This document shows, piece after piece, positions 134 to 8,803 of a DNA stretch of 37,659 bases. The stretch spans positions 1 through 37,659 of the forward strand of contig JBAYZM010000001.1 of NCBI GenBank assembly GCA_041672515.1, written 5' to 3'. Positions within the stretch are counted from its first letter, which is position 1, and each line of letters opens with the position of its first letter. Made by a program: the position numbers and the translations under genes. Under the pieces are notes generated by a model. That model saw only the letters and a program-made list of their open reading frames with translations, was not told the DNA's origin and searched no databases. Source of the stretch: Arcobacteraceae bacterium (lineage in GTDB: Bacteria; Campylobacterota; Campylobacteria; Campylobacterales; Arcobacteraceae).

Positions 134-181
134 TGGATTGGTTTTTGGTTTATAGTTGATGATTTATAGTGAGGGGAAAAT

Positions 182-2652: not shown

Positions 2653-2715
2653 CGCTTTTTTAAGTCAAATATAAATATCATTCAAGAATTGAATATTACA
2701 TTAGGGAAACAAATA

Positions 2716-3036
2716 GTGCTACAAGATGAACTGACATTAAATATACTTAAAAATATTGAAAATACTTCTAGCCAAAAATCTCTTGCCGTAGAACTCCAAA
2801 TTAGCGTAGGAAAAGTGAATTATGTACTAAAAGCGTTAGTTGAAAAAGGTTTAATCAAAGCAGAGAATTTTTTTGCCAATAAAAATAAAAATCAATATAA
2901 ATATTTGATCACTAAAGAAGGGCTTCACGCCAAAATTGAATTAACTGAAAGATTTATCCAAAGAAAAAAACTTGAGTACGATAACCTCATTTTAGAATTA
3001 GAAAAATATAATAAGGAAATAATAAATGACATCTAA
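2716..3036 (+). CDS. MarR-family EPS-associated winged-helix regulator
   Basis: [23 protein letters not shown]...KGLIK...YKYLITxEG pattern; GTG 2716 follows AGGGA (ORF track starts at 2689). Confidence 0.85.
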
Positions 3037-4372
3037 AATTTGTATTATAGGATTAGGCTATGTTGGTTTACCACTGGCTCATGCCTTTGCAAAAAAGTAT
3101 GAAGTGATTGGGTTTGATATTCACCAAGCAAGAATAGATGAGCTTAATAATGCACACGATAGAACATTGGAACTAAGCAGTGAACAACTCAAAGAAGTAT
3201 TACCAAAGTTTAATCAAAATCTTACCACTCACTGTTTACAACTTACCACTCACCTTGAAGATATTGCGGATGCAAATATTTACATCGTAACCGTTCCTAC
3301 TCCTATTGATAAACATAAAAAGCCTGATTTAACTCCACTGATAAAAGCCAGTGAAACGATTGGAAAAGTGCTTAAAAAAGATGATATTGTTATTTACGAA
3401 TCAACTGTTTATCCAGGTGCAACCGAAGAAGAGTGTGTGCCTGTTTTAGAAAAATTCAGTGGATTAAAATATATTTCAACTGAAACACTATCAACTATGA
3501 ACTATCAACTATCAACTAAACCCGAAGGGTTTTATTGTGGTTATAGCCCAGAGCGAATTAATCCAGGGGATAAAGAGCATACGGTAACTAAAATATTAAA
3601 AGTAACTTCAGGAAGTACACCCGAAATTGGACAAAAAGTCGATGCTTTGTATAAGTCAATTATAACCGCAGGCACCCACCTTGCACCTACAATTAAAGTA
3701 GCAGAAGCCGCTAAAGTTATTGAAAATTCGCAAAGAGATATCAATATTGCATTTGTCAATGAACTCTCAATGATCTTTAACCGTTTGGGCATCGACACCA
3801 ATGCCGTTTTAGAAGCAGCAGGAACAAAATGGAACTTCTTAAAATTTAAGCCAGGATTAGTAGGCGGACATTGTATAGGGGTGGATCCATATTACCTTAC
3901 ACATAAAGCACAAGAAGTAGGGTATAACCCAGAAATTATCTTAGCCGGGCGAAGGCTTAATGACAATATGGGGATTTATGTTGCCAATCAAGTGGTTAAA
4001 CTCATGATAAAAAAAGGGCATAAAATCGAAGGTTCTAAAGTGCTCGTACTTGGAATTACATTTAAAGAAAACTGTCCTGACATTAGAAACTCAAGAGTTA
4101 TTGATGTCATAAGAGAGCTTCAAGATTTTGGATGTAACGTTGAAGTAAGTGATTATTGGGCAGATAAAAAAGAAGTTGAATATGAGTATGGAATTGATTT
4201 AATTGAACATTCAACGCTTAATATACAAAGTTATGATGCTGTTATTCTTGCTGTTGCCCATACGGAGTATATTAATAATAATTCAAAATTTAATATTCAA
4301 GATGTAACCGTTTCAACTCAAGTGGTTTTTGATATTAAAGGTATTTTAGAAAAATCAGATGGGAGATTATAA
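3026..4372 (+). CDS. UDP-N-acetylhexosamine 6-dehydrogenase (WbpA/WbpO/TviB-like)
   Basis: [50 protein letters not shown] motifs; carries short repeat-derived segments. Confidence 0.93.
3221..3255 (+). repeat. Heptamer array, CTTACCA family, in frame in the dehydrogenase
   Basis: cttacca ctcactg tttacaa cttacca ctcacct; encodes [12 protein letters not shown]. Confidence 0.75.
3487..3521 (+). repeat. Heptamer array, ACTATCA family, in frame in the dehydrogenase
   Basis: actatca actatga actatca actatca actaaac; encodes [11 protein letters not shown]. Confidence 0.9.
4201..4300 (+). repeat. Two degenerate heptamer arrays, AATTCAA family
   Basis: 4201-4228 aattgaa cattcaa cgcttaa tatacaa (IEHSTLNIQ); 4280-4300 aattcaa aatttaa tattcaa (NSKFNIQ). 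Confidence 0.55.
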
Positions 4373-4373
4373 T

Positions 4374-5345
4374 ATGCCTAATAGTAAAAATTTTGCACTT
4401 ATTGGTGCTAGTGGATATATTGCACCAAGACATATGAAAGCAATAAAGGAAACAAAAAATAATCTTATAGCAGCACTGGATAAATATGATGGAATAGGTG
4501 TAATGGATAGCCATTTTCCCCAAGCAAATTTTTTTACTGAGTTTGAACGATTTGATCGATTTGTAGATAAATGGCACAGAGATGGAAATAAAAGAATAGA
4601 GTATATCGGTATTACTACACCAAATTATTTGCACGATTCACATATTCGATTTGCTCTTAAAAGTGGAGCTCATGCGATTTGTGAAAAACCTTTGGTTTTA
4701 AATCCTCATAATATAGATCAGTTAAAAGTTATAGAAGAAGAAACGGGTAAAAAAGTTTATAATATATTACAACTTAGACTTCATGATTCTATTATTGCAT
4801 TAAAAGAAAAGATTGCAAAAGAGTTACAACAAAACCCAAATAAAGTATATGATATTGATTTAACCTATTTAACCAGTAGAGGGAAATGGTATTTTGTATC
4901 ATGGAAAGGAAATGAAGATAAATCAGGTGGAATTGCATCAAATATTGGTGTGCATTTTTTTGATATGTTATCTTGGATATTTGGTCCTATTGAAGAAAAT
5001 TTAGTTCATTTAAAACAAGCAGATGCCAATGCTGGATTTATGAAACTAAAAAATGCGCGTGTTCGATGGTTTTTATCAGTAAATTATGACTATATCCCTG
5101 AAGATATAAGAGCTACTGGAAAAACTACTTTTAGAAGTATCACTGTTGATGGTGAAGAATTTGAATTCTCAGAAGGATTTACAGACTTGCATACACGATC
5201 GTATGAACATATTTTAAATGGGGGTGGATTTGGTCTTGATGAGGCCAGAAACTCTATAAATATTGTTTCCGTTATACGAAAACTAGCGCCTCTTGGACTT
5301 ACTGGAGAATATCATCCGTTTTGTATTAAAGTCCTTGGTTGTTAG
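4374..5345 (+). CDS. wbpB: Gfo/Idh/MocA oxidoreductase, UDP-GlcNAcA 3-dehydrogenase (WbpB/WlbA-like)
   Basis: FALIGASGYIAPRH, TPNYLHDSH, CEKP, LQLRLH, NIGVHFFD, GFTDLHT; ATG 4374 with GGAG SD. Confidence 0.9.
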   Translation: MPNSKNFALIGASGYIAPRHMKAIKETKNNLIAALDKYDGIGVMDSHFPQANFFTEFERFDRFVDKWHRDGNKRIEYIGITTPNYLHDSHIRFALKSGAHAICEKPLVLNPHNIDQLKVIEEETGKKVYNILQLRLHDSIIALKEKIAKELQQNPNKVYDIDLTYLTSRGKWYFVSWKGNEDKSGGIASNIGVHFFDMLSWIFGPIEENLVHLKQADANAGFMKLKNARVRWFLSVNYDYIPEDIRATGKTTFRSITVDGEEFEFSEGFTDLHTRSYEHILNGGGFGLDEARNSINIVSVIRKLAPLGLTGEYHPFCIKVLGC

Positions 5346-5365
5346 TTTATAGTTTTTAGTTTTAG
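5328..5365 (-). repeat. Heptamer array, AAACTAA family, reverse orientation, upstream of the four-helix-bundle gene
   Basis: aaagtcc ttggttg ttagttt atagttt ttagttt tag; contains the wbpB stop codon TAG 5343-5345. Confidence 0.9.
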
Positions 5366-5377
5366 AAGGAGAGAAAA

Positions 5378-5737
5378 TTGACTGGTTTTGAAAACTTAGA
5401 AGTTTGGAAAAAATCTATCATTCTTGTAAAAGAAGTTTATCTTTTAGTTAAACTCTTTCCTAAAGAAGAAAACTATGCCTTGAGTGATCAAGTTAGAAGA
5501 AGTGCGGTTTCTGTACCAAGCAATATAGCAGAAGGAAGTGGTAGAAATTCATCAAAAGAGTTTGTACAATTTTTATATATTGCATTAGGCTCTATCAATG
5601 AACTAGAAACACAACTTATAATAGCAAAAGAAATAGGTTATCTAAGTAATATTGTAGAAATAAGAACTAAAATTTTGGAGATTAAAAAAATGTTAAACTC
5701 ATTAATCACATCGATAAAGAGACAAAATGGAAACTAA
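5378..5737 (+). CDS. Four-helix-bundle protein (23S rRNA intervening-sequence protein / Avd-like family)
   Basis: [10 protein letters not shown]...[30 protein letters not shown]...[20 protein letters not shown] signature; AAGGAG SD before the TTG start. Confidence 0.93.
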
Positions 5738-6329
5738 AAACCAAAAACTAAAAACCAAAAACTATTACGTACACGAAAGTGCTTTCATTGACGATGGAGT
5801 AACCATTGGAAACAATACAAAAATTTGGCATTTTTCACATATTCTAAGTGGTTCAAACATTGGAACAAATTGTTCTTTTGGTCAAAATTGTGTTGTTGGT
5901 CCAAAGGTCAACATAGGAAATGGTGTAAAAGTTCAAAATAATATCTCTATCTATGAAGGCGTAGAAGTAGAAGATGATGTTTTCTTAGGACCTTCTATGG
6001 TATTTACAAACGTTACAAATCCAAGAGCATTTATAGTAAGACGAGAAGAGTTTAAAAAAACTCTTCTTAAAAAGGGTTGCTCAATAGGTGCAAATGCAAC
6101 TATAGTATGTGGTGTAACAATTGGAGAATATGCCCTTATTGGAAGTGGAACAGTTGTAAACAAAGATGTAAAACCCTATGCTCTTATGGTTGGAGTACCT
6201 GCAAGGCAAATTGGATGGGTATCAAAAGCTGGAAATACACTAAAGTTTGATGAAAATAATGAGGCTGTAGATAGTTTTGATAACACAAAATATAAAATAG
6301 TAGATAATATGTTAAAAGTAATAGGATAA
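5727..6329 (+). CDS. wbpD: Hexapeptide-repeat N-acetyltransferase (WbpD/WlbB-like)
   Basis: [25 protein letters not shown], [13 protein letters not shown], GVPARQIGW; N-terminus [12 protein letters not shown] is repeat-encoded. Confidence 0.9.
5731..5765 (+). repeat. Heptamer array AAAC(T/C)AA x5
   Basis: aaactaa aaaccaa aaactaa aaaccaa aaactat; the first unit supplies the four-helix-bundle gene's stop. Confidence 0.95.
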
Positions 6330-6332
6330 AAG

Positions 6333-7598
6333 ATGTCACTGCAAACTAAAGACCAAAAACTAAAAACCAATATAGATTTCGCAAACTTACAATATCAACA
6401 TGAATTATACAAAGATGAAATAGAAAATGCTATTTTAAAAGTGGCAAGAAATTGTAATTTTATTATGGGAAATGAAGTACAAGAACTTGAGAAAAGTCTT
6501 GAAGAGTTTACGGGTGCAAAATATGCAGTATCTTGTAGTAATGGTACAGATGCTTTACTTCTTGCTATGATGGCACTTGACATAAAACCAGGAGATGAAG
6601 TAATAACTACTCCATTTACTTTTATAGCCACGGCTGAAACAATTGCTTTTTTAGGAGCCATTCCAGTATTTGTAGATATAGATGAAAAAACTTATAATAT
6701 TGACCCAACTAAAATAGAAGCAGCAATTACAGACAAAACAAAAGCTATTATTCCCGTAAGCCTATACGGGCAACCAGCTGATATGGATGCTATTCAATCA
6801 ATAGTAGATAAAACACTAAAAACCAACAACCAAAAACTATACACCATAATAGATGGTGCTCAAAGTTTTGGAAGTACTTACAATGGCAAAACAGATAGCA
6901 ACCTTGGAGACATTTCAACTACGTCGTTTTTCCCTGCAAAACCACTAGGTTGTTATGGTGATGGTGGAGCAGTATTCACGAACGACCAAAAACTAGCGAC
7001 TAAAATCCAAAGTCTAAGACTTCACGGACAATCAAAAAGATATCATCATCAATATATAGGAATGGGTGGAAGACTTGATACTATACAAGCAGCAATTTTA
7101 AATGTAAAACTCAAATACTATCCTAAAGATTTAGCTCTAAGACAAGAAGTAGCTTCTAAATATGATCAAGCTTTTAGTCAAAAGTTTCTAGTCTCTAGTA
7201 AAGAAACCAAAAACAAACAACTAGATATAAGTACTAAAAACGAAAAACTAGAAACTAATAACTATTTAATAACACCATTTGTTTCAGATAAATGTACATC
7301 ATCTTGGGCACAATATAGTATAAGAATAAAAAACCGTGACGAAGTCCAAAAAAGACTTTCAAGTCTTAGTGAACTAAAAACTAAAAACCAAAAACCAAAA
7401 ACTAATATACCAACAGCAGTTCATTATCCAATGCCCTTACATCTACAAGAATGTTTTAGCTATCTTGGATATAAAAAAGGTGATTTTCCTATATCTGAGA
7501 TAGTATCGCAAGAAATCATGAGTTTACCAATGAACCCTTATGTAAGTGATGAAGAAATTGAATACATCGTTAATGAGGTATTAAATTGTATTCACTAA
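6333..7598 (+). CDS. wbpE: DegT/DnrJ aminotransferase (WbpE/WlbC-like) with multiple repeat-derived segments
   Basis: NGTDAL, TPFTFIATAE, SLYGQ, DGAQSFG, SFFPAKPLGCYGDGG, RLDTIQAA, VHYP; 421 aa. Confidence 0.9.
   Translation: MSLQTKDQKLKTNIDFANLQYQHELYKDEIENAILKVARNCNFIMGNEVQELEKSLEEFTGAKYAVSCSNGTDALLLAMMALDIKPGDEVITTPFTFIATAETIAFLGAIPVFVDIDEKTYNIDPTKIEAAITDKTKAIIPVSLYGQPADMDAIQSIVDKTLKTNNQKLYTIIDGAQSFGSTYNGKTDSNLGDISTTSFFPAKPLGCYGDGGAVFTNDQKLATKIQSLRLHGQSKRYHHQYIGMGGRLDTIQAAILNVKLKYYPKDLALRQEVASKYDQAFSQKFLVSSKETKNKQLDISTKNEKLETNNYLITPFVSDKCTSSWAQYSIRIKNRDEVQKRLSSLSELKTKNQKPKTNIPTAVHYPMPLHLQECFSYLGYKKGDFPISEIVSQEIMSLPMNPYVSDEEIEYIVNEVLNCIH
6336..6370 (+). repeat. Heptamer array, AAACTAA family, at the wbpE N-terminus
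   Basis: tcactgc aaactaa agaccaa aaactaa aaaccaa (MSLQTKDQKLKTN). Confidence 0.9.
6813..6847 (+). repeat. Heptamer array, AAACTAA family, inside wbpE
   Basis: acactaa aaaccaa caaccaa aaactat acaccat (TLKTNNQKLYTI). Confidence 0.85.
6976..7017 (+). repeat. Degenerate heptamer array, AAACTAA family, inside wbpE
   Basis: tcacgaa cgaccaa aaactag cgactaa aatccaa agtctaa (TNDQKLATKIQSL). Confidence 0.75.
7167..7265. repeat. Reverse-then-forward heptamer arrays forming an inverted repeat inside wbpE
   Basis: Reverse units caagctt ttagtca aaagttt ctagtct ctagtaa; forward aaaccaa aaacaaa caactag, then gtactaa aaacgaa aaactag aaactaa taactat. agtttctagt 7183-7192 is the exact reverse complement of actagaaact 7247-7256. 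Confidence 0.85.
7371..7405 (+). repeat. Heptamer array x5 inside wbpE
   Basis: gaactaa aaactaa aaaccaa aaaccaa aaactaa (ELKTKNQKPKTN), just before IPTAVHYP. Confidence 0.93.
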
Positions 7599-8803
7599 AA
7601 ACTAGCGACCAAAAACTAAAAACTAATATGTATGATTATTTAATCGTTGGTTCTGGAATCATAGGAATGACAATAGCTTATGAATTGATAAATCAAAACA
7701 AAGATTTAAAAATAGCTATTATTGATAAAGAGGAAGATGTAGGAAAACACGCAAGTGGAAGAAATAGTGGCGTTTTACATGCAGGATTTTATTACAGTGC
7801 CAATAGTTTAAAAGCAAAGTTTACAGTAGATGGTAATAGACTTATGAAAGAGTTTTGTAACTCAAATAATATAGAAGTTAAATCCACTCAGAAAATAGTA
7901 GTAGCAAAAGATGAAAAAGAGATAGAAGGCATTTATGAACTTCAAAAAAGAGCTCAAGTAAATGGAGTTGAAACAAAAATTATTGAAGAAGATGAAGTAG
8001 CTAAAATAGATTCAAATATTAAAACCTACAAAAAAGCCCTTTTTTCACCCAATACAGCCAGTGTTGACCCCAAAATTGTTTGTTTTAAACTCAAGAATAT
8101 TTTAGAACAACAAGGTATTGAGTTTTTCTTTAATACTTCGTTTGAGGTAAGTGAATTAAAGTATGATTATGTAATTAATTGTGCTGGAGCGTATGCAGAT
8201 AAAGTTGCTCAAAGTTTTGGACTGGCACAAAATTATACCATGCTTCCTTTTAAAGGGATATATTTAAAATATATGACCAATAAAACAGATATTAAAACCA
8301 ATATATACCCTGTCCCAAATTTATCAAACCCTTTTTTAGGTGTGCATTATACGATTACATCGGATGGAAGTATTAAAATAGGACCAACTGCTATTCCAGC
8401 TTTCTGGAGAGAAAACTATGACGGATTGAGCAATTTTAATTTGAAAGAAATGATTGAAATATTATACTATGAGAGTAAATTATTTATTTTGAATAGTTTT
8501 AATTTTAGAAATTTAGCCATAGAAGAGATGAAAAACTACAGTTCTAAGATTTTCATTCAAAAAGCAAAAGATATGGTTAAAAGAATAGGAAATGATTTTA
8601 AACCAATTCCAGCAGGAATTAGGGCACAATTATTAAATACAAAGACCAACGAACTGGTTCAAGATTTTGTAGTAGAACACGGTAAAAACTCAACTCATGT
8701 GCTTAATGCTGTAAGCCCTGCCTTTACTTGCAGTTTTGCATTTGCAAAATATGTTGTAAAAGAAATAAATAATAATCAAAAGGAAAATAAAAATGTTGAA
8801 TAA
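7586..8803 (+). CDS. FAD-dependent L-2-hydroxyglutarate oxidase-like protein (LhgO family)
   Basis: IVGSGIIG, HASGRNSGVLHAGFYY, IYPVP...PFLGVH, GIRAQ, NAVSPAFT. Start is either TTG 7586 (GAGG 7 nt upstream) or ATG 7628. Confidence 0.85.
   Translation: MYSLKTSDQKLKTNMYDYLIVGSGIIGMTIAYELINQNKDLKIAIIDKEEDVGKHASGRNSGVLHAGFYYSANSLKAKFTVDGNRLMKEFCNSNNIEVKSTQKIVVAKDEKEIEGIYELQKRAQVNGVETKIIEEDEVAKIDSNIKTYKKALFSPNTASVDPKIVCFKLKNILEQQGIEFFFNTSFEVSELKYDYVINCAGAYADKVAQSFGLAQNYTMLPFKGIYLKYMTNKTDIKTNIYPVPNLSNPFLGVHYTITSDGSIKIGPTAIPAFWRENYDGLSNFNLKEMIEILYYESKLFILNSFNFRNLAIEEMKNYSSKIFIQKAKDMVKRIGNDFKPIPAGIRAQLLNTKTNELVQDFVVEHGKNSTHVLNAVSPAFTCSFAFAKYVVKEINNNQKENKNVE
7592..7626 (+). repeat. Heptamer array x5 at the wbpE / lhgO-like junction
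   Basis: tcactaa aaactag cgaccaa aaactaa aaactaa; the first unit supplies the wbpE stop. Confidence 0.92.

Follow-up and report, generated by a model that had tools for sequence, protein, structure and literature searches.

Why should arrays of one seven-base repeat crowd around a single small gene and lie inside the enzymes encoded beside it? The question is raised by a 37,659-nucleotide stretch of DNA from an Arcobacteraceae bacterium (assembly GCA_041672515.1, contig JBAYZM010000001.1), which is referred to here as the window. A nucleotide-sugar operon within it carries, in order, genes for a dehydrogenase, an oxidoreductase, a four-helix-bundle protein, an acetyltransferase, an aminotransferase and a flavin adenine dinucleotide (FAD) oxidase. 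Heptamers of an AAAC(T/C)AA family flank the four-helix-bundle gene and recur in the genes downstream of it. The genome under study is labelled G000 (its assembly is 88% complete), and C-numbers denote its contigs unless another genome is named. Relatives and their loci are given as G-numbers and L-numbers, respectively.

The explanation favoured here, to which we assign a probability of about one half on the strength of sequence comparisons, is that the gene and its flanking repeats form a gene-in-a-hairpin cassette that would act as a selfish, protein-guided writer, putting its heptamer into and over nearby coding sequence. What is observed at this and related loci is the anatomy of the cassette, arrays that are derived, cognate specificity, replacement-type junctions, in-frame inserts, one length-neutral rewrite and the sharing of array patches between alleles. 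The four-helix-bundle protein would be responsible for both binding and writing the arrays. A pentamer of this protein would bind an array of 4-5 units in single-stranded nucleic acid. The pentamer would help the bound array strand to anneal at a short stretch of microhomology in the vicinity, in most cases no more than about 2 kb downstream, and a host repair or replication polymerase would copy the annealed array in. The same annealing step would let the cassette as a whole reach new gene junctions and would pass short array patches from one allele to another. Selection on the host enzymes would then retain an event only if it were in frame, free of stops and placed in a loop or terminus that tolerates it. 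This mechanism is preferred because it would account for the inserts, empty hairpins, rewrite, junction replacement and relics described below.

Anatomy of the cassette

An initial annotation of the locus had described eight arrays of about five AAAC(T/C)AA units around the gene. All eight exist, with refined coordinates (Table 1). A unit scan finds 8 runs between positions 5300 and 7650, where 300 order-2 Markov samples average 0.027 runs and never exceed 1, and Tandem Repeats Finder also recovers the arrays. The array at 6976 is under the threshold of the unit scan, yet a C-Y-A triplet recurs five times along it with period 7, and a run of at least four is present in only one of 29 other orthologues. 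The unit number holds for the locus, where five phased triplets occur in each of five listed plus-strand arrays, but not for the 5' arm, which has four units, nor more generally, where four is the mode over the 85 cassettes introduced below. A rule of 'five units for five subunits' was rejected on the basis of this mode. Two of the arrays form the arms of a hairpin cassette and another is a rewrite, not an insert; both points had escaped the annotation.

The arrays at 5335 and 5731 are reverse complements of one another and are paired around the open reading frame (ORF) in both the minimum-free-energy and the centroid folds, with a z score of -2.2 for the whole region. The stop codon of the four-helix-bundle gene resides inside the first unit of the 3' arm. 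Only one other member of the protein family is found in G000. It is located on contig C105, between genes that we take to be cysD-like and cysN-like, and it has inverted arms of a heptamer different from the AAAC(T/C)AA family. Both family genes of this genome bear inverted arms of their own heptamer and the extra arrays nearby are cognate, which upholds the earlier proposal that gene and repeats belong together.

Comparison with control loci, as the annotation had recommended, extends this association across phyla. Among 80 family genes, the best period is seven on the upstream side in 53 and on the downstream side in 53, compared to 11 of 275 control windows. Among 159 distinct full-length family genes, 85 passed a test for two inverted arms, and the other 74 are left out of the cassette counts given here. 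The 5' arm has 4-5 units in 50 of the 85 cassettes and the 3' arm in 66. In 30 cassettes the 3' arm is found within the N-terminus of the next ORF, and in 37 the upstream stop lies within the 5' arm. TGA, TAG or TAA leads the unit in 51 of 85 cases. The idea that units serve as stop codons in all frames was discarded, since CAG, CGG and TGG families exist. A Y-R-R unit consensus is marginally over that of shuffled units (0.81, compared to a mean of 0.72 and a maximum of 0.80).

In empty alleles of the operon, the oxidoreductase stop and the acetyltransferase ATG are separated by a few bases. Neither the stop nor the spacer nor the ATG survives in filled alleles. The 5' arm enters the last codons of the oxidoreductase and supplies its stop, and the end of the cassette supplies a new ATG that is followed by the in-frame 3' arm. 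A second family at this junction also overwrites the first conserved codons of the acetyltransferase. Filled and empty junctions are related by replacement at microhomology, and no target duplication was seen when they were compared. Relics exist in arm-only and truncated forms (G057, G516). A search for excision or length variants covered the contigs of four read runs, all from mixed communities; the one joint across the cassette (5323 to 5805, with 69 other letters between) corresponds to the empty allele of a relative and not to excision. In three related genomes, a cysD-cysN-like junction holds four-helix cassettes with differing heptamer arms (L016, L017, L224).

The four-helix-bundle protein matches profile models PF05635 (E 4e-40) and TIGR02436 (E 1e-39) over cut-off. 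The bAvd and DivGenRetAVD models for Avd, a protein of diversity-generating retroelements (DGRs), are under cut-off, with 21 of 80 bits for NCBIfam and 27 of 40 bits for Pfam. The cassette's sole ORF matches PF05635 and bAvd-like models and has no transposase domain, and the residues that are invariant in the family ORF are kept. The predicted structure (pLDDT 94) has TM scores of 0.89 to Xcc0516 (2GSC) and 0.79 to Avd (4DWL) and also matches BT_0352. Two sequence-level matches in the PDB, 2GSC and 2RLD, contain five chains each, and the protein is probably a pentamer like these solved homologues. A search of G000 for a GxxExxY partner gave no match. Three equal-scoring family genes in another genome (G217 C1:584757, 869210 and 1474092) are possibly rRNA intervening sequences (IVSs).

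Cognate arrays in neighbouring genes

The aminotransferase is 421 amino acids long in the window, compared to about 362 in most of 29 orthologues. Its roughly 59 extra residues are arrays at the N-terminus and in loops S1 (6813), S2 (7172-7265) and S3 (7371). These arrays represent the derived state, because most orthologues are shorter and the extra residues are the arrays themselves. The insert in S2 consists of a decayed G/T-rich arm and two C-rich runs that fold together. In all eight in-frame units where T would create a stop, C or G is found instead, and the ninth such unit is the gene's true stop codon. At 6976, 11 codons are changed relative to near alleles (11-14 of 33 bases) with no insertion or deletion, and all five phases become C-Y-A. 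This rewrite uses a unit variant that is also present in the 7592 array and in an insert of G580. It is these in-frame inserts and the rewrite of neighbouring genes by the cognate repeat that are new here.

Three heptamer families recur at S1, S2 and S3, and loops of the dehydrogenase are reused likewise. The dehydrogenase gene contains four arrays of three other heptamer families, at 3213-3252, 3485-3521, 4206-4230 and 4277-4307. Compared to orthologues, the arrays at 3213-3252 and 3485-3521 are in-frame inserts, in loops that are occupied by other families in G307, G515 and G259. Four non-array inserts in the aminotransferase set are each confined to one allele; array patches recur. The 5' part of the G004 aminotransferase was not found. 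In loci L257, L259 and L271 (from G597, G013 and G483), the aminotransferase shares its reading frame with a PIN-like ORF, and the two are joined via a heptamer-encoded linker in G597 and G483.

The comparison of orthologues with and without the gene, proposed at the outset, finds aminotransferase arrays at five of six loci that carry the gene at the junction and at one of 15 that do not (Fisher p 0.002 for these 21 loci with wide flanks, which are not independent of ancestry). The arrays match the local arms at four of the five loci with the gene, and the inserts of G196 match that genome's second cassette elsewhere. In G151, the arms and the aminotransferase inserts are both of one other family. 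Of 24 genomes that carry the gene, 8 show the family pattern, compared to 2 of 276 genomes that lack it. A reversed control pattern occurs in 1 of 24 and 6 of 276, respectively, and kin genomes in these sets are not independent.

The arrays also favour one direction. With all four-helix genes masked, 33 cognate arrays are found in 137.5 kb at 0.26-2 kb downstream of the 85 cassettes, compared to 5 in 134.6 kb upstream. Their density just downstream is about 24 per 100 kb, versus 0.1-1.3 per 100 kb for non-cognate units. We take the oxidoreductase, acetyltransferase and aminotransferase to be wbpB-, wbpD- and wbpE-like, and the label wbpA is also used in this presumptive sense. Exclusion of the wbp loci leaves 61 cassettes, and among these the lean is downstream in 11 and upstream in 2 (p 0.022); counting from 500 nt gives 10 and 2 (p 0.039). 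The earlier statement that no array of the family lies elsewhere in the window is incorrect, as a reverse-strand array occurs far upstream, near a gene that is presumably cysQ-like (Table 1). The same unit scan gives 11 hits in the other 2.46 Mb of G000, of which five look like genuine family members (C17, C113, C121 and two on C215). Several of these five are hairpins behind stop codons.

Array patches of 50-90 nt are common to distant alleles. In a set of 44 alleles, the carriers of one patch are often distant from each other, with a partner rank of 24-42 of 43 in 10 of 13 chosen pairs. The S1 patches of carriers are 0.79-0.98 identical over 51-90 nt at a core identity of 0.68-0.77, where the baseline for 319 non-carrier pairs is 0.71 +/- 0.06. 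Approximately unbiased (AU) tests on a quick tree reject a single clade of carriers in three of five cases (S1-A, p 0.001; S1-ATTC, p 0.001; rewrite, p 3e-8). The rewrite in G014 is a patch of 33-45 nt, in an allele that is nested among five without it. Independent origin of this copy was rejected, as the tract has a serine codon-family switch that matches the window's lineage, and it is read as a transferred patch. Four metagenome contigs, picked by the rewrite pattern, carry the rewrite in the background of the G014 allele, and the S1 insert is visible in three of them. The aminotransferase host gene is a mosaic.

Weighing the explanations

Several results speak against a protein that writes its repeat nearby. 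Per locus, the downstream lean is not significant at 3 kb (9 compared to 4, p 0.27) or at 5 kb (12 compared to 6, p 0.24). Upstream arrays exist (G515, G014, G196 and window positions 138-169), and any extra cognate array is found in only 31 of the 85 cassettes. Of 15 further loci, at least four have arrays but no local gene (G597, G013, G577, G556). Arrays are also found in genomes without a family match (G013, G057, G063), and they persist beside the cassette of another family (G580, L299). Pre-existing seeds are frequent at only three of five sites. For S3-A and S3-CCTTC, a single clade of carriers is not rejected by the AU tests (p 0.31 and 0.47, respectively). Twelve of 15 shared rare patches are at array sites, in a scan that favours inserts by design, and the other three are array-free. 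Because the G014 patch is nested among non-carriers and the metagenome alleles carry the rewrite in the G014 background, the rewrite in these five alleles looks, from their sequences, like one origin plus transfer and not like repeated origin. Co-evolution of protein and unit beyond co-descent was not seen below 60% identity: unit similarity follows protein identity only above 60% (on a quick tree), a relationship that co-descent explains.

A cis-acting RNA regulator would make the arrays selected binding sites. In such a scheme, the pentamer would gate translation of the operon mRNA or protect this transcript by wrapping 4-5 of its phased triplets, as in TRAP, a ring protein that reads phased triplets. 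Such a role would suit the arrays at the starts of three consecutive genes, the 3' arm, which spans the codons behind the acetyltransferase ATG while being base-paired to the 5' arm, and a rewrite that holds its triplets in phase among some flanking bases that are ancestral. An unknown post-transcriptional regulator was proposed by MacGregor (PMC4679880) for TAACTGA repeats near start codons. However, five or six sites in one gene, at a cost of about 59 added residues, look excessive for regulation. Arrays remain where the gene is no longer present or where a cassette of another family has taken its place (L299, G580, G516), cassettes reside at unrelated junctions such as cysD-cysN, and the unit variant that the rewrite shares with the 7592 array and the G580 insert points to copying. 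Regulation is therefore considered unlikely, although it is the most probable of the alternatives. The annotation had left the choice between a regulator of the glycan operon and a small element that seeds repeats locally. The link of gene and repeats on which both options depend is supported, and local seeding fits better because cassettes sit at cysD-cysN and other junctions and because the arrays outlive the gene. If the protein is a regulator instead, then the locus offers a ready set of natural binding sites.

Two further explanations dispense with writing by the protein. One is a passive history in which slippage makes heptamers, the gene and arrays are co-transferred from array-rich donors, and N-terminal arrays are scars of former cassettes. 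Long perfect expansions (C118, C269 and the 5' arm of G196), the mosaic host gene, the arm-only and truncated relics of G057 and G516, and a genome-wide third family without a cognate gene in the 88% complete assembly would all be compatible with this history. It is nevertheless improbable, as slippage does not produce a pair of inverted arms from a single family around each gene, the rewriting of non-repetitive codons without a change of length, or the period-7 excess, and array patches are recurrent where non-array inserts are restricted to single alleles. The other is an effect of the inverted repeats themselves, in which fold-back or template switching would let the 5' arm serve as template for copies downstream, RNase III may cut at the stems as it does in rRNA IVSs, and the gene would be a passenger. 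The 5' arm does pair with six of eight C-rich runs at -18.5 to -24.6 kcal/mol (background minimum -17.6, mean -7.8), and the Coxiella IVS stem with its GACAGAT heptamers is cut by RNase III and surrounds an ORF thought to be unexpressed (PMC4990558). This effect would leave unexplained why period-7 arms are tied to one protein family across phyla and why the ORF has invariant residues. The distance between the arm and its targets reaches 2.3 kb, and a cut in the 3' arm would part the acetyltransferase from its start codon. We give it very little credence.

Related systems and genomic setting

The locus is a variant of the IVS-type gene-in-a-hairpin and lies outside the IVS, DGR and insertion sequence/miniature inverted-repeat transposable element (IS/MITE) groups. 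In Coxiella burnetii, the IVS (S23p) has a stem of about 28 bp that is cut by RNase III, and GACAGAT heptamers precede its ORF (PMC4990558). The cassette resembles such 23S rRNA elements in having the same protein family in a stem loop, complementary ends that pair around the ORF and, as noted in that paper, tandem heptamers in the 5' flank. Unlike them, it resides at an mRNA operon junction between protein-coding genes and not in a 23S rRNA gene. It also takes over the stop and start signals of its host genes, and arrays of its cognate repeat lie inside neighbouring genes, a spread that does not figure in the covered portion of PMC4990558.

DGR Avd shares the fold, is a pentamer and an RNA stem-loop binder, and acts in a system that rewrites coding DNA. 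All five of its protomers hold one RNA stem-loop (10.1101/2023.10.23.563531). The protein studied here differs in scoring under the Avd model cut-offs and in having no linked reverse transcriptase (RT). The one RT of G000 is on contig C40, and the closed genomes G014 and G471 carry cassettes without an RT match. Dependence on RT was rejected because 12 of 35 gene-bearing genomes and 15 of 35 comparison genomes have an RT, which is no association (7 of the latter 35 were examined for the family gene only near the aminotransferase). The C40 enzyme (C40:11282-12733) is a stand-alone RT of 483 amino acids beside cobalamin-pathway-like genes.

Heptamer repeats have been described in other bacteria. 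For GGGAATC repeats of Xanthomonas, the main text of PMC4692102 reports that the heptamer excess is little studied, that four units are modal and that inverted pairs occur, and in the main text of PMC4679880 the TAACTGA repeats of Beggiatoaceae lie near starts and have an unknown binder. As in the present case, these are genome-specific 7-base units, mostly in 2-6 copies, that form inverted pairs near start codons, with rare coding copies at protein ends. In contrast to the present case, no protein partner is identified, the term 'helix bundle' is absent from both main texts, and no description of a mid-gene rewrite was seen in them. A literature search found no paper tying the PF05635/TIGR02436 family to dispersed or coding heptamer arrays; it did not extend to supplements, which could hold such lists, and subscription papers were largely outside it.

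Small hairpins tied to a cognate protein gene are familiar from repetitive extragenic palindromic (REP) sequences and REPINs with RAYT and from MITEs, and DNA uptake sequences are motifs that pile up in coding sequence. The cassette differs from IS, MITE and REPIN elements in that it has no transposase domain and no target duplication and that its insertion replaces the stop, spacer and ATG. It differs from REP/REPIN sequences, MITEs and uptake sequences in its period-7 tandem units and in an accumulation that is local and not genome-wide for the AAAC(T/C)AA family.

A broader proposal, which is tentative and has somewhat less than even odds, is that Avd-like pentamers without RT or transposase constitute a widespread class of sequence writers. 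Members would recognize their own 7-base repeat and copy it by microhomology into chromosomal DNA nearby, with in-frame rewrites of conserved codons among the results. They would also move their gene between operon junctions and make array-bearing patches of 50-90 nt home between divergent alleles. They would be the source of the heptamer excess and ancestor-like relatives of DGR Avd and rRNA IVSs. This proposal joins two questions, the role of the large 'IVS protein' family and the cause of the over-representation of 7-base repeats in bacteria, an excess that protein-driven repeat copying may explain. This locus gives the strongest hint of a mechanism. The repeat is more than packaging of the gene: it is found inside working enzymes, sometimes without a change of length, close to the gene and in that gene's own repeat dialect. 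If the protein does act in this way, it would be a relative of DGR Avd with a small, RT-free activity for DNA writing or homing, and a source of loop insertions in surface-glycan enzymes.

Table 1. Positions of the cassette, its cognate arrays and the surrounding genes in the window.
Feature	Position	Strand	Comment
5' arm	5335..5364	-	4 units, G/T-rich on coding strand; gives the upstream oxidoreductase its stop
3' arm	5731..5765	+	5 units; in-frame N-terminal extension of acetyltransferase (ATG 5727)
Array insert	6339..6370	+	Directly behind aminotransferase ATG
Array insert, loop S1	6813..6847	+	In frame; patch shared with distant alleles
Length-neutral rewrite of conserved codons	6978..7019	+	C-Y-A at 6986, 6993, 7000, 7007, 7014
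Decayed 'empty hairpin' insert, loop S2	7172..7265	+	In frame; fold -14 kcal/mol
Array insert, loop S3	7371..7405	+	In frame; also in G004 and G580
Array at aminotransferase / hydroxyglutarate-oxidase-like junction	7592..7626	+	Contains upstream stop codon
Distant array, AAAC(T/C)AA family	138..169	-	Upstream of presumed cysQ-like gene
Dehydrogenase gene	3026-4372		Operon member
Gfo/Idh/MocA oxidoreductase, host gene	4359..5345	+	Terminal codons overwritten by 5' arm
Four-helix-bundle gene (PF05635/TIGR02436)	5378..5737	+	119 amino acids, TTG start
Hexapeptide acetyltransferase, host gene	5727..6329	+	Start codon comes from cassette
DegT-family aminotransferase, host gene	6333..7598	+	421 amino acids
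Hydroxyglutarate-oxidase-like FAD oxidase	7586/7628-8803		Start TTG 7586 or ATG 7628

The array at the end of the aminotransferase is an N-terminal extension of the FAD oxidase if the TTG is its start and is intergenic if the ATG is used. A MarR-family EPS-associated regulator (TIGR04176) at 2689-3036 heads the glycan cluster.

Period 7 is in excess throughout G000, with 50 arrays compared to 3-6 at periods 5, 8, 10 and 11, and most of these belong to a third family in intergenic hairpins. Dozens of such 'empty' hairpins are distributed over many contigs (for example, C21:13912-13983, C118 and C269). This third family has no cognate gene in the 88% complete assembly, and a cassette with arms of the third family is carried by G004, which is of the same genus (L005, L170). 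Several copies of a longer palindromic element, edged by heptamer arms of the C105 family, are found among toxin-antitoxin-like small genes at C113:1500-5000. A tRNA-ligase-like linker and further genes of sugar pathways also carry in-frame heptamer arrays, at about 1500 in L285 (G451) and at 1530, 2019 and 14180 in L065 (G041), where the fetched stretch has no four-helix gene.

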